Program-made: the position numbers and the translations under genes
The notes under the pieces: model-generated
The model's input: only the letters and a program-made list of their open reading frames with translations
Databases searched by the model: none
What the model was told of the DNA's origin: nothing
From: Candidatus Kerfeldbacteria bacterium
GTDB taxonomy: Bacteria > Patescibacteriota > Patescibacteriia > SBBC01
Length of the DNA: 64,000 nucleotides
Direction: 5' to 3'
Assembly: GCA_043799405.1 (NCBI GenBank)
Contig: JAZDNT010000001.1
Coordinates: 25,752-89,751 of the forward strand
Shown here: positions 3,920 through 35,917 of the stretch, piece by piece
Layout: each line of letters opens with the position of its first letter
Numbering within the stretch: position 1 is the stretch's first letter

Positions 3920-4219
3920 CTAGACGGGCGCGAGCGATTCGATACCCGGAAGGACCTTCTCCTCGAACCGTCGTCGGTTCTCCGGAAACTCCTCTGTGAG
4001 ACTGATCGCGACTTCGCAGCCACCCGCGTCCCCACTCCGCTCGAATGAGCTCAGGAACCGTTCGTCCACTGTGGACATCGAGATCCCGTAGCCGATCATG
4101 TTGCGGAGCTCGCGGACCCGTCTGGTCGCTTTGGGCTTGAAGCGGATCTTCAGCGTCCCCTTCTTGGCGGTCGCCTCGTCGAGCACTGCCTTGAACGGTG
4201 CATCCCCCTTGTCACCCAC
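3920..4219 (-). CDS. hypothetical protein
   Basis: GTG start preceded by AAGGAGGTG with an 8-nt spacer on the minus strand; no family recognised. Confidence 0.55.
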   Translation of the reverse strand: MGDKGDAPFKAVLDEATAKKGTLKIRFKPKATRRVRELRNMIGYGISMSTVDERFLSSFERSGDAGGCEVAISLTEEFPENRRRFEEKVLPGIESLAPV

Positions 4220-4328: not shown

Positions 4329-4868
4329 ATGACATCGGTAACCGCACTCCTCGGGGATATAACAACGCAGCAGGTTGAGGCGATCGTGAACGCCGCGAAC
4401 GAGTCGTTGCTCGGTGGAGGTGGCGTCGACGGCGCTATTCACGCTGCAGCTGGTCCCGTTCTTCTCGAAGAATGCAGGAAGCTCGGCGGATGTAAGACCG
4501 GCGAGGCGAAGATCACGAACGCTTACCGTCTTCTGGCTGATTACATCATCCATACCGTTGGTCCGATATACTCGGTGAAGAAGGAGAAGGTGCCTGAATT
4601 CCTCGCACAGTGTTACCGGAGCTGTCTTGAGGTCGCACAATCACACCTCATTCGAACGATAGCATTCCCCTCGATCTCAACGGGCGCCTACGGGTACCCC
4701 ATTGAAGAGGCGGCGCCGATCGCCGTCGCAACGGTGAGTGCTTGGATCGCGGAGCATCCGGATACCCTCGATGAGGTGCGGTTCGTCCTTTTTAACGATG
4801 AAGACTTGAAGATATATTCAGCGGTTCTACACGAAAAAACGGAAAAGACGGTCAATGGCGTATCGTAA
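4329..4868 (+). CDS. macro-domain protein (O-acetyl-ADP-ribose deacetylase, YmdB-like)
   Basis: GDITTQQVEAIVNAAN..LLGGGGVDGAIHAAAG and FPSISTGAYGYP. Confidence 0.9.
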   Translation: MTSVTALLGDITTQQVEAIVNAANESLLGGGGVDGAIHAAAGPVLLEECRKLGGCKTGEAKITNAYRLLADYIIHTVGPIYSVKKEKVPEFLAQCYRSCLEVAQSHLIRTIAFPSISTGAYGYPIEEAAPIAVATVSAWIAEHPDTLDEVRFVLFNDEDLKIYSAVLHEKTEKTVNGVS

Positions 4869-5739
4869 AGCGACGATAAGCTCATCGAACATTCGGGCTT
4901 TTCGTAAGGTTGTGTATGCATTCTCACGTACGCATCATCGTGATTTCCCGTGGCGCCGGACAACGGAATCATACCGCATCCTCGTATCCGAGGTCATGCT
5001 CCAGCAGACGCAAGCCGAGAGGGTCATTAAAAAGTATCGACAGTTCGTCAAGCAATTTCCTTCAATCAGAGCATTAGCGCGCGCGTCGTTGAAGGAAGTG
5101 CTACTCGTTTGGCAAGGGCTAGGATATAACCGTAGGGCGTTAGCATTGAAAAAGATCGCGCACGAAGTTGTTGCCCGATATGGCGGAAAGATCCCTTCGA
5201 ACATTGCCGGCCTCACTTCCCTTTCTGGAATTGGTACGTACACTGCTGGGGCGGTACTTGTGTTTGCATACAATCGACCTGTGATCATGATTGAAACGAA
5301 CATCCGTTCGGTCTTCCTGCATCATTTTTTCCGGACTGACCGCAATGTCGAAGACCGGATGATACTTCCCATTATCGAAGCAACGCTCGATCGCCGGAAT
5401 CCGAGACGATGGTACGGAGCGCTCATGGACTACGGTTCGTACTTAAAGAAGGTGAATAAAAACCCGTCGCGCCGCAGCGCTCATTATACACGTCAGCCGA
5501 AGTTCATCGGTTCCAGACGGCAGATCCGGGGACGGATCATATCAACGCTCATTAGCAATCGCTCGCTAACCGTTTCGGAACTTGGAAAAGAGGTAGGAAA
5601 AGAGATTGGATGTACGCAAAAAACTATATATGCAATAGTTCAGCAGCTTATAGACGAGGGGATTGTATCAATGCGAAGGACGAAATACACGATTGCATCG
5701 GAAGTCAAGGAACGAAAATCAGCTCGTTCAAGACGATAG
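4855..5739 (+). CDS. HhH-GPD DNA glycosylase (MutY/EndoIII-like, no Fe-S Cys cluster) with a C-terminal winged-helix-like tail
   Basis: FPWRRT..YRILVSEVMLQQTQ..V...Y..F...FP, GLGYNRRA, GIGTYTAGAV. No CX6CX2CX5C motif is seen. Confidence 0.75.
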   Translation: MAYRKATISSSNIRAFRKVVYAFSRTHHRDFPWRRTTESYRILVSEVMLQQTQAERVIKKYRQFVKQFPSIRALARASLKEVLLVWQGLGYNRRALALKKIAHEVVARYGGKIPSNIAGLTSLSGIGTYTAGAVLVFAYNRPVIMIETNIRSVFLHHFFRTDRNVEDRMILPIIEATLDRRNPRRWYGALMDYGSYLKKVNKNPSRRSAHYTRQPKFIGSRRQIRGRIISTLISNRSLTVSELGKEVGKEIGCTQKTIYAIVQQLIDEGIVSMRRTKYTIASEVKERKSARSRR

Positions 5740-7400: not shown

Positions 7401-8066
7401 ATGGTCTTCGGAATCGATTCGATAGTTACACAGTTTCCCGTGTTCATCGCGGGGGTCGTTGCCCTGATCATTTCGATCGGGTTCCACGAGTTCAGTCACG
7501 TTTTTGTCGCCCATTCGCTCGGGGATCCGACCGGCAAGAACGCCGGGCGACTTACCCTTAATCCGCTCAAGCATCTCGACCCCGTCGGGACGCTCCTTAT
7601 TTTGGTCGGGGCGTTCATCGGATGGGGAAAACCGGCGCCCTTCAGTCCCGAGAACCTGCGGTATAAAAGGTACGGATCGGCGATCGTCGCTCTCGGCGGG
7701 CCGCTCATGAACCTATTGCTCCTCGTAATGGGGAGCATTGCGCTACGGATTTCGTTCGGGGTCCTTGGCGCGAGCAATCTCCTTACGGTTTTTCTCCAGT
7801 TATTCGTCATAATGAACGCATCGCTTCTGCTGTTTAACCTTATCCCGCTACCGCCGCTCGACGGATCCTGGCTTCTCCTTGCGCTGCTTCCTCGGTCAGC
7901 AGACTCGCTCCGTGAATTCTTAGGCCGCTACGGCTGGTTCATCCTTCTCGGCGTCATTTTCGCAGATTTCATGTTTCATATTCCGATTATTTCGCCGTAC
8001 CTCTACCGCGGCGTGCTGTTCCTCATGAACGTATTCGGTATCATTCCGTATCTTGGTACCGTTTGA
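7401..8066 (+). CDS. site-2 protease family (M50) zinc metalloprotease
   Basis: HEFSHVFVAHSLGD (HExxH) in a TM helix, NLIPLPPLDG motif. Confidence 0.85.
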   Translation: MVFGIDSIVTQFPVFIAGVVALIISIGFHEFSHVFVAHSLGDPTGKNAGRLTLNPLKHLDPVGTLLILVGAFIGWGKPAPFSPENLRYKRYGSAIVALGGPLMNLLLLVMGSIALRISFGVLGASNLLTVFLQLFVIMNASLLLFNLIPLPPLDGSWLLLALLPRSADSLREFLGRYGWFILLGVIFADFMFHIPIISPYLYRGVLFLMNVFGIIPYLGTV

Positions 8067-8191
8067 CATCCTGGAGCATTATTGGTACACTGTCCTGTGT
8101 TCTACGCTCCCTCTCACTGACAGTAGTGAGTATTTTTTAGAACGCAGCAATTCTGCCAGCGTAACGAAAGTAACGAACAAGTAAGCAATCT

Positions 8192-8620
8192 ATGCCATCG
8201 ATAAGCCAACTCGTCCGTCACGGAAGGCATCATGACCAGACGAAATCAAAGACACCGGCGCTCCAGTCAGTATTGAACGCGCTCAAGCGGAGACGCACCG
8301 AACTACCGAAAGGCAGTCCGTTCAAGCGCGGCGTGTGCGTTAAGGTAACGACGACCACTCCCAAGAAACCGAACTCGGCGCTCCGCAAGATTGCCCGTGT
8401 TCGCCTTTCGAACGGGCAGGAGGTCACCGCCTACATTCCCGGCATCGGGCATAACCTGCAGGAGCACTCGATAGTGCTGATCCGAGGCGGCCGCGTAAAG
8501 GATCTCCCTGGCGTCCGGTACCATATCGTTCGGGGCGTGTACGATACGCAGGGGGTCAGCGAGCGTAGGCAGGGAAGAAGCCTCTACGGCGCAAAGCAGC
8601 CAAGCGAGGCAAAGGGGTAG
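8192..8620 (+). CDS. rpsL: 30S ribosomal protein S12
   Basis: [10 protein letters not shown] and [23 protein letters not shown]. Confidence 0.97.
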
Positions 8621-8621
8621 T

Positions 8622-9086
8622 ATGCGCGGAAAGCAAGCACCAAAACGCGAGATAGCACCTGATTCAAGGCACTCATCGACGCTGATCGCAAAGTTCATCA
8701 ACCTCATCATGCAGCGTGGAAAGAAGTCTGTTGCGCAGGCAATCGTCTACGGCGCGTTCGATATTATACGAGAGAAGAGCAAGCAGGATCCGCTCTCGAT
8801 CTTCGATGCAGCGATGAAGAACGTTGCGCCGATACTCGAGGTGAAATCAAAGCGTGTCGGCGGTGCGAATTACCAGGTTCCGATCGAGGTTCGCGGAGAG
8901 CGACGGATCGGTCTCGCAATGCGCTGGATCATCGGCGCAGCTATGAACAAGAAGGGCAAGCCCATGAAGGTAAAGCTCGCGGCCGAGCTTATGGAAGCGA
9001 GCATGAACCAGGGCGACGCGGTCAAGAAGCGCGCCGACGTGCACCGTATGGCAGAGGCGAATCGCGCCTTCGCCCATTTTGCTTAG
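8622..9086 (+). CDS. rpsG: 30S ribosomal protein S7
   Basis: GKKS.A..IVY.A, VGGANYQVPIEV, ANRAFAHFA C-terminus. Confidence 0.97.
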   Translation: MRGKQAPKREIAPDSRHSSTLIAKFINLIMQRGKKSVAQAIVYGAFDIIREKSKQDPLSIFDAAMKNVAPILEVKSKRVGGANYQVPIEVRGERRIGLAMRWIIGAAMNKKGKPMKVKLAAELMEASMNQGDAVKKRADVHRMAEANRAFAHFA

Positions 9087-9155
9087 ACGATTATGGAATC
9101 AATTGCGTTGTATTCGAAAGTGGTTGATCCGAAGCAGGTATGGCTTCGGCGGACA

Positions 9156-9182
9156 AGCCGCGCCTTCGCGCATTTCGCGTGA
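9156..9182 (+). pseudogene. ghost copy of the rpsG 3' end (SRAFAHFA*)
   Basis: agc cgc gcc ttc gcg cat ttc gcg tga at 9156-9182 compared with the real aat cgc gcc ttc gcc cat ttt gct tag at 9060-9086. Confidence 0.7.
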
Positions 9183-9184
9183 GT

Positions 9185-9715
9185 ATGGGCGAAAAATTAA
9201 ATCCTGAACCGAATCCTGGAGTCTCTCGCAAAAAAGATGAGGATTTTTTGTCGACGATTAATGCCGAATTTGAAAAAGGTGATACCGCAAAGAACGATCG
9301 CGAAAGGTACAGTGAAGAGATTGATGTTCTGTGTCATAGATACTCCGACCTCGTTCGGATGAGAAATGAGATCGAAGCCTCAAAAGGGAAAGCGATGACC
9401 TACCTCGATACACTTTCGCTGCCGGATGAATCAAGACGCGAGCAGGATATCTTGGAGCTTTCACGGAGGTCTGAACGTATTGTTGATGATGCTATCAATC
9501 ATCTTACTACACACTATAAAATCCTCAATATATTATTGCTCGAAACGCCCGATGATGCTCGAAGAAGTCTCATCAACTTGACGGCCGAGGACGTACGTTC
9601 CGCGAGCGATGAACTCTTGTCACGATACAAGGACATGCAAGACCTTCACGAACAAATAGTAAAGGCTGTGAATCAGTACCGCGATCTTGCACAACAGGCG
9701 TCCCGAAAGCAATAA
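9185..9715 (+). CDS. orphan helical/coiled-coil protein inserted between rpsG and fusA
   Basis: ATG lies 3 nt after the ghost stop. 176 aa, charged and helical, with lower GC than its neighbours. No family recognised. Confidence 0.6.
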   Translation: MGEKLNPEPNPGVSRKKDEDFLSTINAEFEKGDTAKNDRERYSEEIDVLCHRYSDLVRMRNEIEASKGKAMTYLDTLSLPDESRREQDILELSRRSERIVDDAINHLTTHYKILNILLLETPDDARRSLINLTAEDVRSASDELLSRYKDMQDLHEQIVKAVNQYRDLAQQASRKQ

Positions 9716-9752
9716 ATCATTATTCACATTTCAACGTAAGCTCTATACCATC

Positions 9753-9839
9753 ATGCCCAGAGAATACTCGCTCGAAAAGACGCGCAACACCCCGCACCAG
9801 TCGCTGCGCTCCGATGCGGGGCAAGTCGGAATAATGTAA
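9753..9839 (+). pseudogene. ghost copy of the fusA 5' end ([12 protein letters not shown]...DAG...)
   Basis: The first 12 codons are identical in protein to real fusA (9846) but with GC-richer synonymous codons. The copy then degenerates and stops after 28 codons. Confidence 0.75.
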
Positions 9840-9845
9840 TATCTT

Positions 9846-11936
9846 ATGCCAAGAGAATACTCATTAGAAAAGACAAGAAATATTGGAATCCTTGCGCACA
9901 GAGACGCCGGAAAGACGACGGTTTCCGAGCGCATCCTCTTCTATACGGGAAAGAAGCACAAGATCGGCGAGGTTCATGAAGGCGAGGCAGAAATGGACTG
10001 GATGGAACAGGAGAAAGAGCGCGGTATCACCATTACCGCCGCTGCTACGACCTGTTTCTGGAAGGACCATCGTATCAACATCATCGATACGCCTGGTCAC
10101 ATCGACTTTACCGTCGAGGTACAGCGAAGTCTTCGGGTTCTCGACGGCGGCGTTGTCGTGTTCGACGGCGTTGCAGGCGTTGAGCCTCAGTCAGAGACAG
10201 TCTGGCATCAGGCTGAAAAGTTCAAGGTGCCGGTGATCTGCTTCGTAAATAAGATGGACCGGATGGGTGCGGACTTTTACAACGACCTCGCGTCGATCCA
10301 TGAACGGCTGACTACCGATGCTCACCCGCTGCAGCTCCCGATCGGCGCGGCTGAGACCTTTATGGGCATCGTTGATTTATTCGAGCGTAAAGCCGAGATC
10401 TACAAGGATGATCTCGGCAAAGAAATCGAGACTACCGAAGTTCCTAAGAACATGAAGGAGAAGGTCGAGCACTACCGGCATAAGCTCATTGAGGCGATAT
10501 GCGAACAGGATGATAAGCTCCTCGAGCAGTACCTTGCCGGAAAAGAACCTTCTATTCCAGAACTGAAAGTAGTGCTGCGGAAGGCCGTGATCGAGAACAA
10601 GCTCATTCCAGTACTCTGCGGATCAGCGCTCAAGAACAAAGGCGTTCAGTTCCTCCTTGATGCCGTGAACGACTACTTGCCGAGCCCGATTGAAATCCCG
10701 CCGGTAAAGGGAAAAGATCCGAAGACCGAAGCAGAGGTCATAAGAAAGGCATCTGACGAAGAACCGTTCACTGCGCTCGCATTCAAGATCGCGGCTGATC
10801 CTTTTGTCGGCAAGCTCGCGTTCTTCCGCGTCTACTCCGGAACGATCAAAGCAGGTTCGTACGTGCTGAATGCTTCGACCGGGAACAAGGAGCGGATCGG
10901 ACGTATCGTTCGGTTGCACGCGAACCATCGCGAAGAGGTGCAGGAGGTGTTCGCAGGTGAGATCGCCGCCGCAGTGGGTTTAAAGAGTACAACGACCGGT
11001 AATACGCTCTGCGATCCCGACCATCCGGTTGTCCTCGAATCTATAACGTTCCCTGATCCGGTCATCCACATCGCGATTGAACCGAAGACGAAGCAGGATC
11101 AGGAGAAGATGGGCTTTGCGCTTGCACGTCTCGCGGAGGAAGATCCGACCTTCCGTGTGAGGAGCGACGAGGAAACCGCGCAGACGATCATTTCTGGCAT
11201 GGGCGAACTGCACCTCGAGATCATCGTGGATCGCATGAAGCGGGAGTTCAAGGTCGAGGCGAACGTCGGAAGACCACAGGTCGCATACCGTGAGACGATC
11301 ACGATCCCAGCGGAAGCAGAAGGAAAGTACATCAGACAGAGCGGTGGTCGTGGTCAGTACGGACACTGCTGGCTGAAGCTCGTTCCCCAGGAACATGGGA
11401 AGGGGTACGAGTTCGTCGACGATGTCAAGGGCGGCGTCATTCCAAAGGAGTACATTCAGCCGATCAATAAAGGGATACAGGAAGCGATGGACAAGGGCGT
11501 CGTTGCCGGGTACCCGATGGTGGATGTTCAGGCCACTGTCTACGACGGAACGTACCACGAGGTCGACTCATCGGAAGCAGCGTTCAAGATCGCCGCATCG
11601 ATAGCATTTCAATTAGCCGCCAAGAAAGCGAAGCCTGTGCTGTTAGAACCGATAATGAAAGTCGAGGTTGTTACACCCGAATTGTCCATGGGCGATGTTT
11701 TAGGAGACCTGAACTCGAAGCGCGCCTCGATCAAGGAAATGCGCGATAGGGCGCAGTCGAAGATCATCGATGCAGACGTACCGCTCGCTGAAATGTTCGG
11801 ATACGCTACCGCGCTCAGGTCGATGACGCAGGGTCGCGCGTCATACACGATGGAATACAGCCGCTACGAGCAGGTTCCGAGGCACGTTGCCGATGAAATC
11901 ATTGAGAAGAGCGGTAAGGCGGAAAAGGCGCGATAG
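9846..11936 (+). CDS. fusA: elongation factor G
   Basis: [22 protein letters not shown]; full length, 696 aa. Confidence 0.97.
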
Positions 11937-12077
11937 TCTTCCACAGCGGGTGGGGAAAAATCAGGAACAGTACGCTTGTGAGAAGCGGAGCACGTGCGTC
12001 TATGGTCATTTTTTACCTAACATTAGGCAAATAATTACTTCATGAAATTATTTAAACAGAAAAGAAAGCACAACGTC

Positions 12078-12106
12078 TTGCATTTAGCCGAAAATGTTTG
12101 TATAAT
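12078..12106 (+). promoter_or_regulatory. sigma70-like promoter (TTGCAT-17-TATAAT) upstream of tuf
   Basis: Near-consensus hexamers with a 17-nt spacer in the AT-rich fusA-tuf spacer. Confidence 0.55.
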
Positions 12107-12182
12107 CTATTGTGCTGCAGCAATACAGTGAATTAATGATACGTTATACATCATAGCAATTTCATAAGTAAAGGAATCACAT

Positions 12183-13367
12183 ATGGCAGGAAAATTCGAA
12201 CGCACGAAACCGCACGTGAACGTCGGTACCATCGGTCACGTTGACCACGGAAAGACCACGCTCACTGCAGCGATACTGAAGACGCTCGCCGCGAAAGGTT
12301 TCGCAGCCCAGACAAAGGGCGTCGATGACATTGACAACGCCCCTGAAGAGAAGGCGCGCGGCATTACCATTGCGACCGCGCACGTCGAGTACGAGTCTGA
12401 AAAACGTCACTACGCGCACGTCGACTGTCCCGGTCACGCTGACTATGTGAAGAACATGATCACCGGCGCCGCACAGATGGACGGCGCGATCCTCGTCGTT
12501 TCGGCGGTCGATGGTCCGATGCCGCAGACCCGCGAGCACATCCTGCTCGCAAAGCAGGTTGGCGTTCCGTACATCGTCGTCTACCTCAACAAGGTGGACA
12601 TGGTCGACGATAAGGAACTCATCGATCTCGTCGAGGTCGAGATTCGTGATCTCCTCAAGAAGTACGAGTTCCCCGGCGATAAGACCCCGATCATCCGCGG
12701 TTCGGCGCTGAAAGCCCTCGAAGGAGACGCAGAAGCGGCTAATTCGATCATGGAGCTCGTAAAGACGCTCGATGAGTACATTCCCGAACCGAAGCGTGAA
12801 ACCGACAAGCCGTTCCTCATGCCGATCGAGGACATCTTCTCGATCGAGGGACGCGGTACGGTCGTTACTGGCCGTATCGAGCGCGGAATGATAAAGCTCA
12901 ACGAAGAGGTTGAGATCGTTGGCATACGCGATACGTCGAAGACCGTCGTTACTGGTATAGAAATGTTCAATAAACAGCTGGACGAGGGTCGTGCTGGCGA
13001 CAACGCCGGTTTGCTCTTGCGCGGAACCAAAAAGGACGACGTTGAGCGCGGACAGGTGCTCGCAAAACCGGGGAGCATAACCCCGCACTCCGAGTTCGAT
13101 GCGAACGTCTACGTCCTCACGAAGGAAGAGGGAGGTCGTCACACCCCGTTCTTCAAAGGCTACAAACCGCAGTTCTACGTCCGGACCACGGATGTTACTG
13201 GTGAGGTCGAACTGCCTGCCGGTACCGAGATGGTCATGCCTGGTGATACCGTTGACCTCAAGATAAAGCTCATCGCTCCGGTCGCGCTCGAAGAGAAGTT
13301 CCGATTCGCCATCCGTGAAGGCGGACATACCGTCGGCGCGGGAGTGGTAACGAAGATTAACAAGTAA
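12183..13367 (+). CDS. tuf: elongation factor Tu
   Basis: [22 protein letters not shown]. Confidence 0.98.
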
Positions 13368-32466: not shown

Positions 32467-32542
32467 GGGCCGCTAACTCAATTGGTAGAGTATCAGCCTT
32501 TTAAGCTGAGAGTTCCGGGTTCGAGTCCCGGGCGGCCTACCA
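32467..32542 (+). tRNA. tRNA-Lys (anticodon UUU), CCA encoded
   Basis: The cloverleaf folds by hand: acceptor GGGCCGC/GCGGCCT (G1:U72), anticodon loop CUUUUAA, T arm CCGGG-TTCGAGT-CCCGG, then ACCA. Confidence 0.93.
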
Positions 32543-32596
32543 TCCACATTTTTTATCGAGGGACCGGGAGGGTTCGCCAAGAGAATTTAGTATCGG
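32537..32596 (+). repeat. cassette-leader repeat R, copy 1 (starts in the tRNA 3' end)
   Basis: ctaccatccacattttttatcgagggaccgggagggttcgccaagagaatttagtatcgg, about 85% identical by eye to 33682-33741. Confidence 0.8.
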
Positions 32597-32604
32597 AGCG
32601 ATCC

Positions 32605-33048
32605 ATTATAGATAAAGTCACAAATAATCTAGTATTGGAACTTCACGTTCCCGACTTTAACAAGGCGCGGGAGTTCTACAAAATATTCGGTTTTAATCAG
32701 ATTAAATACGACCCAACATCAGGCGGTGGGAGCGATCTAGGATACATGATCTTAAAAAGAGAAGACGGCCTAGGAGAAACACATCTCAACTTCTATGGCG
32801 ATAAGGACAAAGTGTCTCAACACGCTCACTTTAGGGACTTCGCGGCATCAACTCCCCGGGGATATGCGGTAGAAATAACAATTCCTGTTTCGGATGTTCA
32901 TAAACTCTGGAATGACACGAAAGATTTATTGGATGCTTCACAGATTTCCCAACCATTGACTCTTAAACGTTGGGGAAAGGAAGATTTTAGAGTAGTCGAT
33001 CCATTCGGATTCTACGTTCGCTTTACTGAAATAGTCGACTGGTATTGA
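32605..33048 (+). CDS. glyoxalase/bleomycin-resistance (VOC) superfamily protein
   Basis: LELHVPDFNKAREFYKIFGF matches the beta1-alpha1 pattern. The track ORF starts inside the tRNA, so the real start is uncertain: ATT 32605 after a GGAG, or TTG 32635. Confidence 0.55.
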   Translation: MIDKVTNNLVLELHVPDFNKAREFYKIFGFNQIKYDPTSGGGSDLGYMILKREDGLGETHLNFYGDKDKVSQHAHFRDFAASTPRGYAVEITIPVSDVHKLWNDTKDLLDASQISQPLTLKRWGKEDFRVVDPFGFYVRFTEIVDWY

Positions 33049-33083
33049 ACCCGGGCGGCTCGCCAATAGAACTATTTATCAGG
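33049..33083 (+). repeat. partial R repeat, copy 3
   Basis: acccgggcggctcgccaatagaactatttatcagg aligns to the distal half of R (gaccgggagggttcgccaagagaatttagtatcgg). Confidence 0.6.
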
Positions 33084-33103
33084 CATAACCCGACTACTTA
33101 ACC

Positions 33104-33589
33104 ATGGATCGTTTTACCGACGCAATTCGTAAATCCATTAGCGACCAAAACTGGTTTGCTGCGTTATTTTTATCACTTTGCATGCCAGATATCTGTGGCT
33201 CCTTGGAAACTCCCGATGAGCAAGTTGGCCCTCGATACAAAAGGTGGTTTGGGGCTAATTTAGCGACATCATATTCTTCAATGTTTTCTGCAGAAGATTG
33301 TTATTCCTTTCGTTGTAGTTGTCTGCACCAAGGCCTTGATACACACCAGCGAATGTCCCATGAACGAATACATTTCATTACCCCGCCTCCCCGGGGCAAT
33401 GTGGTACATTGCAATATGTTTAATAACGTTCTTCAGCTGCAAATTGATATTTTCTGTGAAGATGTTGCCATGGCTGTTGATTCTTGGTATGAAGCTGTGA
33501 AAAATAATCCAGAAATCCAAGCAAGGGTCGAGGCGTTAATTAAGATATACGGCCCCGAGTCACTCCAACCATTTATTGCCTTCCAGTAG
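33104..33589 (+). CDS. hypothetical protein (cassette 2)
   Basis: 161-aa ORF in AT-richer sequence than the flanks; no family recognised. Confidence 0.55.
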   Translation: MDRFTDAIRKSISDQNWFAALFLSLCMPDICGSLETPDEQVGPRYKRWFGANLATSYSSMFSAEDCYSFRCSCLHQGLDTHQRMSHERIHFITPPPRGNVVHCNMFNNVLQLQIDIFCEDVAMAVDSWYEAVKNNPEIQARVEALIKIYGPESLQPFIAFQ

Positions 33590-33591
33590 CA

Positions 33592-33741
33592 CCCCGACCG
33601 AGAGGTATCAAATCACCCATAGGAAATAGCGCAAAAAAGCCTTACAATGCCCCTACAGTCCAGGTGCTAGACCAGCGCGGGCTACCATCAACACTTTTTA
33701 TCGAGGGACCGGGAGAGCCCGCCAAGAGAACTAGGTATCGG
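33592..33741 (+). repeat. composite junction: L repeat copy 1 (ends in the tRNA-like gcgggctacca) fused to R repeat copy 2
   Basis: L at 33592-33687 matches 34492-34588. R at 33682-33741 matches 32537-32596. Confidence 0.8.
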
Positions 33742-33776
33742 GTGACCCGAGTACTAGTATAAAAGCGAATGCTCAT

Positions 33777-34421
33777 ATGTTTGACGCTATCGTAGTATTC
33801 GGCGGGGGAATAAGCCCCGACGGATCACTTGAAGAAAATTCACGTGTTCGAGTCAAAAAAGCGATTCGATTGTGGAACGACAAGCTTGCTCCGGTCATAG
33901 TCATGTCAGGAGCTTGGGCGTCTTCGAGTGTTATGATGCCGTTACGAACCGAGGCTGCGGCTATGGCAGAACTTGCTGAACAGCTCGGTTGTCCATCAAG
34001 TTGCATACTTAAGGAAGAGCAGTCAAAAGAAACGATTGGAAACGCATACTTTGTCAAAACACTTTTTGCCATCCCAAGAAAATGGCGAAGTCTTGTTATC
34101 GTTGCAGCAGATTACCATATTCCTCGAACACGTCAGATATGCCATAAAGTTTTCGGTCCAGATTATCATCTCACTTTCGAAAGTGCGCCATTGCCAATGA
34201 CAATTGATGAGCGAAAAGAACGCGACATCGGCGAATTAGCTCGTTTATCAATATTCAATGAATGGATCGATGCGCAACCTGGTGATCACCGAGCGATTTG
34301 GGGGGTCTTAAGTACCATACATCCGGCATACTCGAAACATCCGAAGTATTCTCGAGAAGATATAGTCCGCTTAATCGCGGAGCGAATCGTGAAGTTACGC
34401 GCCGAGAGAATCGGGTCCTGA
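33777..34421 (+). CDS. DUF218/YdcF(ElyC)-like protein (cassette 3)
   Basis: IVVFGGGI..DGS....S..R...A..L......P.I..SG; E..SKETIGNA; LVIVAADYHIPR. Confidence 0.7.
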   Translation: MFDAIVVFGGGISPDGSLEENSRVRVKKAIRLWNDKLAPVIVMSGAWASSSVMMPLRTEAAAMAELAEQLGCPSSCILKEEQSKETIGNAYFVKTLFAIPRKWRSLVIVAADYHIPRTRQICHKVFGPDYHLTFESAPLPMTIDERKERDIGELARLSIFNEWIDAQPGDHRAIWGVLSTIHPAYSKHPKYSREDIVRLIAERIVKLRAERIGS

Positions 34422-34491
34422 CCTCACCGCACATAGAGGTTTTTTAAGCGATCTACCTGCCTCAAATCGTCTCCGTAAAAAACCCAAAAGA

Positions 34492-34588
34492 CCCCGACCG
34501 AGAGGCGTCAAATCGAGCTATAGGAAATAGCGCGAAAAAGCCTTATAATACCCCTACAGTCCAGTTCCCAGACCGGGGCGGGCTACCA
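34492..34588 (+). repeat. L repeat copy 2 (terminal; ends in ggcgggctacca)
   Basis: ccccgaccgagaggcgtcaaatcgagctataggaaatagcgcgaaaaagccttataatacccctacagtccag...gggctacca. Confidence 0.8.
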
Positions 34589-34623
34589 AACAGCGCAGCG
34601 ACCATATATACGTCGTCTTTATT

Positions 34624-34646
34624 TTCGCGAAAATTCGCGATATACT
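34624..34646 (+). promoter_or_regulatory. two TTCGCGA palindromic half-sites 10 nt apart abutting a TATACT -10 box (candidate metalloregulator operator)
   Basis: ttcgcgaaaattcgcgatatact lies 9 nt upstream of the Nramp ATG. Confidence 0.35.
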
Positions 34647-34654
34647 GACAACGC

Positions 34655-35917
34655 ATGTTCCACCTAAAAAAAATATTCAAGAAAATCGGTCCCGGCGTGA
34701 TAACCGGCGCTTCGGACGATGACCCCTCGGGTATAGCCACGTACTCGCAGACAGGGGCCAGGTTCGGGTACCAGATGCTCTGGCTTGCGCTCGTATCGAC
34801 GCCGCTCATGATGGCAGTGCAGGAGATGTCGGCGCGGCTCGGCATGGTGACCGGACGGGGCCTTGCGGGCATCCTAAAGAAGCACACGTCGGCAAAGGTC
34901 GTGTTCGTGCTCGCAAGTCTCCTCTTCCTCGTGAACACCATTAACATCGGGGCAGACCTCGGCGCAATGGCGGAGGCGTCGCGTCTCGTGCTGAACGGGC
35001 CAGGATGGCTCTACCTCATACTGTTCACGGCCGCGATCGTCCTACTAGAGATCTTCGTGAGCTACAGGAAGTACGTGAACGTACTGCGGTGGCTGACGTT
35101 CGTGCTGTTCGCGTACGTCGCTGCGGCTTTCTTCGTTCAGCAGAACTGGTGGGAAATAATAACAAGTACGATCATCCCTTCGTTCAGTTTGAACAAGGAG
35201 ATGTGGCTGATGATCGTTGCAGTGCTCGGGACCACTATATCACCCTACTGTTTCTTCTGGGAAGCCTCCGAAGAGGTCGAGGATGAGATCGCCGAAGGGC
35301 GTACGACGATCAAGAAACGCACGGGGGCGACGAAGAAGGAGATACGGTCAATGCGCGAAGAGACGGTCGTTGGGATGAGCTACTCGAACATCGTCATGTT
35401 CTTCATCATCATCACGACGGCCGCAACCCTTCATCGCGCCGGCATCACGTCGATCGGGAACGCGAGCCAAGCCGCAGAAGCGCTCCGCCCTCTCGCCGGT
35501 AACCTGACCTTTATGCTTTTTACAGTAGGCATCATCGGTACTGGCTTGCTCGCGATCCCGATACTCGCGGGATCGGCTTCGTATGCGATCGCAGAAGTGT
35601 TCGGATGGAAGGAAGGACTATCGAAGCAGTACCGTCAGGCGCACGCGTTCTACCTCGCCATAGCCGCTTCCGTTATCCTCGGGCTCATCGTGAACGTCAT
35701 CGGCATTCCTCCGATGCAGTTCCTCATCTACGCCGCGGTCCTCAACGGCCTGCTCGCTCCCGTTATCATCTGGTTCATTCTCCGATTGTCTGACCGCCGC
35801 GACGTTGTCGGCGTCCATACGAGTACGCCATGGGTCCGCTTCTTCGGATGGTTCGCCTTTTGCGTCATGTCGCTGTCTGCGTGTATCCTTGTGTATCAGT
35901 CACTCTTCGTCGTATGA
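34655..35917 (+). CDS. Nramp-family divalent metal transporter
   Basis: GPGVITGASDDDPSGIATYSQTGARFGYQMLW, about 11 TM segments. Confidence 0.85.
   Translation: MFHLKKIFKKIGPGVITGASDDDPSGIATYSQTGARFGYQMLWLALVSTPLMMAVQEMSARLGMVTGRGLAGILKKHTSAKVVFVLASLLFLVNTINIGADLGAMAEASRLVLNGPGWLYLILFTAAIVLLEIFVSYRKYVNVLRWLTFVLFAYVAAAFFVQQNWWEIITSTIIPSFSLNKEMWLMIVAVLGTTISPYCFFWEASEEVEDEIAEGRTTIKKRTGATKKEIRSMREETVVGMSYSNIVMFFIIITTAATLHRAGITSIGNASQAAEALRPLAGNLTFMLFTVGIIGTGLLAIPILAGSASYAIAEVFGWKEGLSKQYRQAHAFYLAIAASVILGLIVNVIGIPPMQFLIYAAVLNGLLAPVIIWFILRLSDRRDVVGVHTSTPWVRFFGWFAFCVMSLSACILVYQSLFVV

Follow-up and report, generated by a model that had tools for sequence, protein, structure and literature searches.

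Few pieces of bacterial DNA are as conserved and as tightly coupled as the str operon. In a 64-kb stretch (here called the window) of a single metagenome-assembled genome (MAG) of Candidatus Kerfeldbacteria, the junction between two genes of this operon, rpsG and fusA, holds an additional gene, here called X, and each of the two neighbouring genes has one end in duplicate. The last 27 nt of rpsG stand in frame at 9060-9086 and again at 9156-9182, and the first 36 nt of fusA stand in frame at 9753-9788 and again at 9846-9881. In each pair, the copy that belongs to the complete gene is called the working end and the copy on the side of X the ghost. Working end and ghost are spaced by 96 nt in the rpsG pair and by 93 nt in the fusA pair, both distances being divisible by 3. 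The DNA between them is assigned to two blocks, F on the rpsG side and E on the fusA side. The features of the junction are as follows.

8622-9086, + strand: rpsG (ribosomal protein S7, 154 aa; Pfam Ribosomal_S7, E 2e-60), working 3′ end at 9060-9086
9087-9155, + strand: spacer of block F, 69 nt, inserted on the rpsG side
9093-9182, + strand: bridging mini-ORF 1 (ORF, open reading frame), 29 codons, MESIALYSKVVDPKQVWLRRTSRAFAHFA and stop, read from the sequence
9129-9149, + strand: hairpin CCGAAGC-aggtatg-GCTTCGG, fold -10.4 kcal/mol, z -2.1, 6 nt 5′ of the ghost rpsG end
9156-9182, + strand: ghost rpsG end (SRAFAHFA and stop), recognized by alignment with the working ends of relatives
9185-9715, + strand: gene X, 176 aa, with homologues and a predicted structure
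9716-9752, + strand: proposed native fusA leader (ending in TTTCAACGTAAGCTCTATACCATC), the 37 nt after the X stop, by-eye similarity to the leaders of relatives
9753-9839, + strand: ghost fusA start, 12 intact codons (9753-9788) running on as the 28-codon mini-ORF 2, TAA at 9837-9839
9789-9845, + strand: block E, 57 nt, with hairpin CCCCGCA (9790-9796)...TGCGGGG (9815-9821), CAAGTCGG and an AT-rich leader, homologous to a block in L089/L090
9846-11936, + strand: fusA (EF-G, 696 aa; Pfam domains), codons 1-16 (9846-9893) being an AT-rich replacement start

Ghost and working ends

An earlier note on this DNA (the original prediction) had reported the duplicated rpsG end and fusA start, and at every coordinate it gave they are confirmed in the sequence. 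The entire 64 kb was scanned for ungapped direct repeats 30-400 nt apart and compared with shuffled sequence. The rpsG pair was the sole match at 18/20, and in a scan of the same type the fusA pair was one of two at 20/24, with 0 in the shuffles in both cases. The duplicated ends are not a product of chance; they are the strongest short-range direct repeats of the 64 kb. The longest identical runs between the copies, 11 nt (cgcgccttcgc) and 12 nt (agagaatactc), are internal to the repeats, away from the junctions. The repeat scan found no further ghost gene ends elsewhere in the 64 kb, and the idea that such ends are a genome-wide habit was rejected, there being no second case within this length. 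The other repeat at 20/24 (35665-35691 and 35755-35781) lies inside a membrane-protein coding region and resembles an internal transmembrane repeat rather than a ghost end.

As the original prediction had also stated, the copies differ almost solely at synonymous sites. The working rpsG end reads aat cgc gcc ttc gcc cat ttt gct tag and the ghost agc cgc gcc ttc gcg cat ttc gcg tga, so that the two differ at 3 synonymous sites, in the stop codon and in one further codon. Between the working and ghost starts of fusA there are 8 nucleotide differences over 12 codons, all 8 of them synonymous.

It had been claimed that the ghosts use GC-richer codons and come from a GC-richer donor. They are indeed richer in GC at third positions than the working ends (9/12 vs 3/12 in fusA, 6/7 vs 4/7 in the rpsG core), but a GC-richer donor is unneeded: with third-position GC (GC3) of 0.62 for the genome mean, 0.69 for rpsG and 0.66 for fusA, ghost usage matches that of the resident genes, and X itself is AT-richer than rpsG. 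Ghost codon usage is thus the genome norm, and the unusual, AT-rich copies are the working ends. Within fusA, GC3 is 0.25 in codons 1-16 vs 0.72 in codons 17-45; within rpsG, it is 0.57 in the last 14 codons vs 0.88 in codons 101-140.

Related genomes agree with this assignment. Positions 9158-9180 of the ghost rpsG end are identical at 23/23 to the working rpsG ends of the comparison loci L086-L088 and at 22/22 to those of L084/L085, and in alignment the spacing from the ghost stop to the ATG of X is the ancestral one. Similarly, the leader of the ghost fusA start (..TTCAACGTAAGC..ACCATC) is partly like the leaders of working fusA in L086, L091 and L083 and of the ghost in L089. The original prediction had treated the ghosts as newcomers; the polarity is reversed, the ghosts being native ends in ancestral positions and the novelty being the working ends with their 57-69 nt.

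No classical mobile element is present, in agreement with the original prediction. Rfam covariance models, those of ribosomal-protein leaders and riboswitches included, gave 0 matches at E<=5 in 7900-12400, and promoter and terminator scans gave nothing above chance.

Gene X and the rpsG-fusA slot in relatives

Comparison loci carry L-numbers and form three sets: 77 genomes for the size of the rpsG-fusA gap, 96 junctions for a protein-level scan for ghosts, together with later loci, and 216 other loci for searches with the blocks. The gap is smaller than 120 nt in 62/77 genomes, which bears out the claim of a lineage-specific gene in a normally empty junction; it exceeds 150 nt in 15/77, nearly all of them Patescibacteria.

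X had been called an orphan, which it is not. A full phmmer pass over 1.8 billion representatives gave 3 homologues (49, 42 and 37% identity), and a fourth was found later in L214; across methods, pairwise identities are 34-49%. All 4 occupy the same slot. In the carriers (the window, L081, L082, L083 and L214) X always lies between rpsG and fusA, in the neighbourhood M50 peptidase-rpsL-rpsG-X-fusA wherever the contig reaches, and its ATG follows the stop closing ..RAFAHFA by 1-4 nt in 5/5 genomes. The ranking of X identities among the carriers is the ranking of their rpsG identities. Since the GC3 of X is below that of rpsG by 0.15-0.32 in every carrier, the low GC of X in the window belongs to the family as a whole and does not point to foreign origin. 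By these comparisons X appears as a small Kerfeldbacteria-only family, resident and fast-evolving in the rpsG-fusA slot.

X is predicted to form an all-helical soluble bundle (predicted local distance difference test score, pLDDT, 85.6; predicted template modelling score, pTM, 0.71). The sole Pfam match, borderline and partial, was to a FUSC-like family (PF12805); it reached 22.5 bits vs a cutoff of 22.1 over 64/284 profile positions and was treated as spurious. Profiles of PADLOC, PHROGs and PDB sequences yielded nothing usable for X, the best Foldseek match in PDB had an E of 0.16, with no known fold recognized, and no nuclease or other known domain was found in X. A word-indexed protein search with X alone or with a 4-sequence profile returned only X itself and two already known homologues. 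That X keeps a fixed place and appears coupled to S7 hints, as an inference only, at a role linked to translation. An in-frame ATG at 9140, possibly a relic of the Met in the ghost's ..HRMAEAN.., would give an X of 191 aa; all X homologues start with MGE or MSD at the position matching 9185, and the true start in the window is either 9140 or 9185.

The slot is filled differently even among close relatives. In genomes whose S7 is 80-90% identical, it holds a sequence-unrelated helical gene of 143-145 aa or 246-273 aa, or a remnant of 12-17 codons starting ATGG(G)CGACGACGACGG (L086 ~3970-4023, L089 ~3924-3962, L091 ~582-629). The other helical slot genes are as follows.

L084: 3970-4710
L215: 3467-4288
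L092: 3467-3898
L216: 3600-4037

Profile-profile comparison of the three slot gene types detected no mutual homology, which points to either very fast divergence or repeated cassette replacement. Most slot genes of the relatives with S7 80-90% identical begin ATGGGCGA (MGE/MGD). In other Patescibacteria the slot holds a PD-(D/E)XK (PDDEXK_3) gene, a 23S_rRNA_IVP four-helix-bundle gene or a MazG-like gene, as listed here together with two further occupied slots.

L002 and L005 (~4466-4955), L050 (~4470-4890), L039 (~4435-4830): PDDEXK_3, 23S_rRNA_IVP or MazG-like genes
L014 (4462-5782): two ORFs
L009 (4462-5199): a putative lipoprotein

The rpsG-fusA slot of Patescibacteria generally serves small accessory genes as a landing site. 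Small genes of the families PF05635 (23S_rRNA_IVP) and PF13366 (PDDEXK_3), which in Patescibacteria are found in rRNA intervening sequences and in further conserved loci, are the same gene types as in these other slots, whereas X has no similarity to either. Several of the comparison loci (L012, L013, L018, L026-L030 and others) have Patescibacteria-like S7 and EF-G in MAGs titled 'uncultured Gammaproteobacteria', titles that are probably mislabelled.

Ghosts and slot genes were then compared across the related junctions.

Window: rpsG ghost and fusA ghost; slot gene X
L083 (GCA_016204585.1): rpsG ghost, no fusA ghost; slot gene X
L216 (Logan assembly): rpsG ghost, no fusA ghost; an unrelated 145-aa gene
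L011: rpsG ghost, no fusA ghost; no gene, and a 16-codon ORF (MSELRQAGRAFAHFAR and stop) wedged TAA-t-ATG...TAG-t-ATG between rpsG and fusA
L089 (GCA_964349545.1)/L090: no rpsG ghost, fusA ghost with the block E hairpin; no gene
L081, L082, L214: neither ghost; slot gene X
L084, L215, L092: neither ghost; other slot genes

The original prediction held that the ghosts had arrived with X. This does not agree with the distribution: L089/L090 and L011 have ghosts without X, L216 has its ghost beside an unrelated gene, and L081, L082 and L214 have X without ghosts. Relatives with duplicated ends and without the gene, which the original prediction itself had named as evidence to the contrary, are thus found in L089 and L011.

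The blocks also recur across species. On the rpsG side, the last ~28 nt of the F spacer (GGCGGACAAGC...; GGCGGRCAAGC) match the ghost-proximal sequence of L216 (p=0.0015), and the match takes in the G that converts the Asn codon to AGC. The F junction reads GGCGGRCAAGCCGCG, and the insertion point is rpsG codon 147 in the window and L216 alike. Otherwise the F spacer has no detectable similarity to rpsG, X or any relative's junction; an extension of the ghost rpsG homology 5′ of the core (GTATGGC..GGCG) was suggestive but not significant (p=0.18 in the window, p=0.05 in L216). L216, L083 and L011 also have a hairpin beside the ghost rpsG end. The same ghost architecture arose more than once, because neither L083 nor L011 has an insert homologous to those of the window and L216. 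Between the ghost cores of the window and L216, which have the junction in common, there are 6 differences, all at third positions, and between working and ghost rpsG cores of 4 genomes there are 17 synonymous codon changes vs 1-2 non-synonymous ones (both hand counts from alignments). This synonymous bias would fit either selection on a translated ghost or repeated fresh capture of native ends.

On the fusA side, the 57 nt of block E align with 60 nt at the equivalent site of L089 with a local score of 34.5 vs a maximum of 30 in 5000 shuffles. Both have a hairpin CCCCGYA...TRCGGGG followed by CAAGTCG, with one compensatory stem change from C-G to T-A. The insertion point is after fusA codon 12 in the window and codon 15 in L089, and there is possible microhomology (A or AYCA) at the junction. 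The core of E is single-copy in the 64 kb, matches with 2 mismatches being at chance level. The working fusA start of L089 has GC3 of 0.24 in codons 17-45 and 0.98 beyond; compared with fusA of L086, its identity is 0.75 in nt 48-135 but 0.96 in nt 135-300, codons 1-45 being 75-80% identical. By sequence comparison, the replacement start of L089 is demonstrably a foreign AT-rich patch.

Two side observations concern gene ends at this junction. L083 (1678-1722) and L214 (1095-1139) have in common an unusual rpsG end, aat agg gcg ttt gct ca[ct] ttt, with 87% identity over the last 45 nt, and are otherwise distant (rpsG 67-75% identical); this looks like a short recombination patch without a ghost. 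At EF-G codons 16-19 (9891-9902) the window departs from IGIIAHIDAGKTT, the reading of 9/9 relatives examined. The changes I16L and I19R are lineage-specific and lie beside the P-loop, precisely where the AT-rich replacement patch has its edge; they could be the scar of a recombination junction or a sequencing error.

Origin of the ghosts

How could DNA enter this junction twice and leave both genes complete? The reading that we prefer, with a probability of about 0.55, is that two short inserted blocks displaced the native rpsG end and the native fusA start, that X was resident, and that the ghosts are the old native ends. X would normally be read by termination-reinitiation straight after rpsG. 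Block F, ~96 nt, would consist of a new rpsG end and 69 nt, and block E, ~93-105 nt, of 57 nt and a new AT-rich fusA start. The blocks would have cut the native termini off the gene bodies and left them beside X as ghosts, and rpsG and fusA would have stayed intact because each block brought a replacement terminus.

The source of the blocks was probably recombination with diverged homologous DNA. One crossover would be homologous, inside the conserved gene, and the other an illegitimate join that falls within the native terminus, a few codons in, so that the terminus was duplicated and not deleted (homology-facilitated illegitimate recombination). Recombination that is homologous on one side and illegitimate on the other inserts foreign DNA, and it has been proposed for displaced 3′ ends in loci of Rhs proteins and of type VI secretion (T6SS) (PMC5361080; PMC3240628). 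In keeping with a homologous junction, AT-rich codons 1-45 of L089 fusA give way to 96% identity, and the window has its AT-rich codons 1-16; the sign is weaker on the rpsG side of the window. In keeping with an illegitimate one, the boundaries at 9155/9156 and 9788/9789 are sharp, and the spacers are unrelated to neighbouring sequence. The original prediction had invoked recombination with a related str operon; of the possible sources this is the best one, at the least for the block on the fusA side, but not as a carrier of X.

Once formed, the allele may move between lineages by ordinary homologous recombination, with the ghost as one homology arm and the conserved gene body as the other. 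Such spread would explain the identical junctions beside different slot genes, the lineage-like ghost cores and the unequal co-converted tracts (16 codons in the window, 45 in L089). The ghosts may be kept for their translation context: the ghost rpsG stop would deliver terminating ribosomes 2 nt from the ATG of X, and the ghost fusA start would open a mini-ORF that closes 6 nt before the working fusA ATG.

Several points weigh against this reading. No donor lineage carrying F or E natively was found among the 216 loci (blastn and tblastn of spacers and peptides) or in viral contigs, and the spacer parts of F and E match nothing beyond L216 and L089. Identical junctions across species would require either old polymorphism or spread by homologous recombination. 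The replacement rpsG end in the window differs from the ghost only at 3 synonymous sites, in the stop and in one further codon, too little to demonstrate a foreign origin. The likeness between the fusA leaders is a by-eye judgement. The bridging ORF on the fusA side of the window is of a kind common by chance (0.60 in shuffles), and the mini-ORF coupling relay would, in the window organism, be something that we infer. Finally, the genome of the window is one assembly, and there are only ~15 related junctions, many on contigs of 1-5 kb.

An unlikely variant gives the rpsG terminus itself a stronger part. The last ~8 rpsG codons and the stop would in these bacteria be an obligatory cis signal for reinitiation at the following gene, so that DNA entering the junction must duplicate them, and F and E would be 'self-healing' modules, each made of a hairpin, a bridging mini-ORF and a replacement terminus, that spread between species by way of the ghost as homology arm.

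A purely local origin seems no easier to believe: tandem duplications of ~95 nt across each gene junction, whose redundant middle has decayed, would need no foreign DNA. The spacings of 96 and 93 nt, both multiples of 3, would suit such duplications, as would the rpsG copies, which differ at only 3 synonymous sites and have the His codon cat in common, and the 16-codon mini-ORF of L011 is readable as a fusA-start remnant fused to an rpsG-end remnant. The spacers, however, have no significant similarity to the rpsG body, the fusA body, the 5′ region of X or the 3′ end of X with the leader: local and anchored alignments of spacers with their neighbours gave p=0.05-0.97 against shuffles (window, L083, L216, L089, L011). 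In addition, a 106-nt duplication cannot yield the 45-codon AT-rich patch of L089.

The model of the original prediction, in which a related str operon supplied a block of X flanked by the ghost rpsG end and the ghost fusA start, and illegitimate recombination put this block into an X-less spacer of ~126 nt, is improbable. It has the merit that a single event accounts for both ghosts and for their nested symmetry. X-less relatives with spacers of 87-94 nt do exist (L086-L088, L091), and the identity between ghost and real fusA starts (78%) equals that seen between species at the 5′ end of fusA (0.77-0.79). Yet the spacers of the X-less relatives are unlike F or E, L089 has a ghost fusA start before E though it is without X, and the window and L216 have the same F-ghost junction with unrelated downstream genes. 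The composition of X and the ordering of its identities fit vertical descent, and the ghost codons are resident-like, not GC-richer.

Still harder to accept are F and E as miniature site-specific mobile insertions, each with a terminal hairpin and its own copy of the target terminus and for that reason harmless in an essential gene. The same element end does lie at the same or a near-identical target in different species (codon 12/15 for E, codon 147 for F), a hairpin adjoins every ghost, and the E stem has one compensatory change. On the other hand, F and E are single-copy in the 64 kb and absent from the 216 other loci, no transposase or integrase is nearby, terminal inverted repeats and short target duplications are lacking, and F of the window has no homology with the F-like inserts of L083 and L011. 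E was not found in viral contigs either, and the same is true of X. In a metagenome search for the E hairpin, made with an overly loose pattern, 0/120 of the matches fetched had a real hairpin or lay beside fusA.

An assembly artefact, in which the metagenome assembler joined two strain variants of the junction in tandem, would be in keeping with a single MAG assembly with X on one contig only but is very improbable, as the same architecture stands in independent assemblies from other samples (L083, L089, L216, L011) and the spacers are unrelated to the duplicated genes and hence are not strain variants.

Displacement by inserted blocks that bring their own termini, the reading preferred here, has precedents. 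In the orphan 3′ ends of Rhs, contact-dependent inhibition (CDI) and T6SS effector-immunity arrays (PMC5361080), recombination anchored in a conserved part brings in a new terminus, the old one is shifted downstream and survives as a remnant beside the next gene, and there are repeated copies of the junction. The window differs in that the genes are essential translation genes and not toxins, that new and old termini encode the same peptide, that the inserts are ~95 nt without cargo, that both a 3′ and a 5′ end are affected, and that the remnants are seemingly kept for translation and not for immunity. Another likeness is with e14 (and phage 21) in icd of Escherichia coli, which leaves the icdC pseudo-end (PMC13626634): there too the order is gene body, supplied end with synonymous differences, element and displaced native end. 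However, e14 is a 15-kb prophage, whereas the 'element' here is 57-109 nt and has no integrase, att core or genes, and here there is in addition a mirror case at a 5′ end. Between working and ghost ends there are only 57-69 nt, with no integrase, recombinase or cargo and no ORF with a recombinase domain, and an identical att core at both junctions was not found. As for features of miniature inverted-repeat transposable elements (MITE) or repetitive extragenic palindromes (REP), the E core is single-copy and the window has no other such repeat.

Elsewhere in the window, the fusA-tuf spacer (11937-12182, 246 nt) is very AT-rich (GC 0.30-0.41), with a gap of similar length in L084 and L086, and probably holds a tuf promoter or leader. 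A run of four genes at 32482-35286 has GC3 of 0.34-0.43 vs a window mean of 0.62 and may be a foreign island.

Translation across the inserts and meaning of the locus

In 9 relatives the gene after rpsG has its ATG 1-4 nt past an upstream stop. This layout is that of termination-reinitiation coupling, to judge by sequence. In published experiments, ~20 nt between stop and start abolish this coupling, and the last 15 nt of the upstream gene suffice for it (PMC10666635). An insert after rpsG is, in the junctions with a ghost rpsG end, spanned by a mini-ORF. In the window, mini-ORF 1 starts 6 nt past the rpsG stop and closes at the ghost stop, 2 nt ahead of the ATG of X. Each of the 4 inserts on the rpsG side is crossed by an ORF with an ATG start, which begins at most 16 nt past the working stop and ends at the ghost stop, with lengths of 29 codons in the window, 30 in L083, 38 in L216 and 16 in L011. 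The frequency of such a bridging ORF in shuffled spacers is 0.029 for the window, 0.031 for L083 and 0.071 for L011; L216 fits by reading. On the other side, both fusA-side ghosts (window and L089) open ORFs that end 6-11 nt before the working ATG: the stop of mini-ORF 2 is 6 nt ahead of the working fusA ATG in the window, and the mini-ORF of L089 has 31 codons and a stop 11 nt ahead of the working ATG there.

The likeness to termination-reinitiation gene pairs (PMC6728339, PMC10666635) thus lies in the stop placed 1-4 nt from the next ATG and in the short upstream 3′ piece kept before that ATG; the difference is that the upstream ORF is here a mini-ORF with a tail that is an rpsG relic. Ribosomes ending rpsG may pass through the mini-ORF and be handed on to X. 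We know of no earlier description of a mini-ORF relay across an insertion.

Displacement of gene ends is known; what is new is the unusual place and the regularity of the case, with a hairpin beside every ghost and with bridging mini-ORFs. The case would gain in interest were the relay of mini-ORFs, or a horizontal spread of the blocks, real. If F and E are self-healing modules, they would be an undescribed kind of small, horizontally spreading insertion without an enzyme of its own. The locus also gives a caution, since ghost gene ends need not be footprints of a neighbouring gene's arrival.

For Patescibacteria, the rpsG-fusA slot is a hot spot of gene turnover, having at least 3 unrelated helical families as well as PD-(D/E)XK, 23S-intervening-sequence-type and MazG genes. 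The locus shows how DNA can enter the str operon without harm to rpsG or fusA: the terminus is duplicated and the old copy is left in place. The same solution is found in at least 5 related genomes, at 3′ and at 5′ ends, always with an ORF that bridges the insert. It points to a testable rule, namely that a junction at which the end of one gene also serves as the start signal for the following one tolerates only insertions that bring a second copy of this end.

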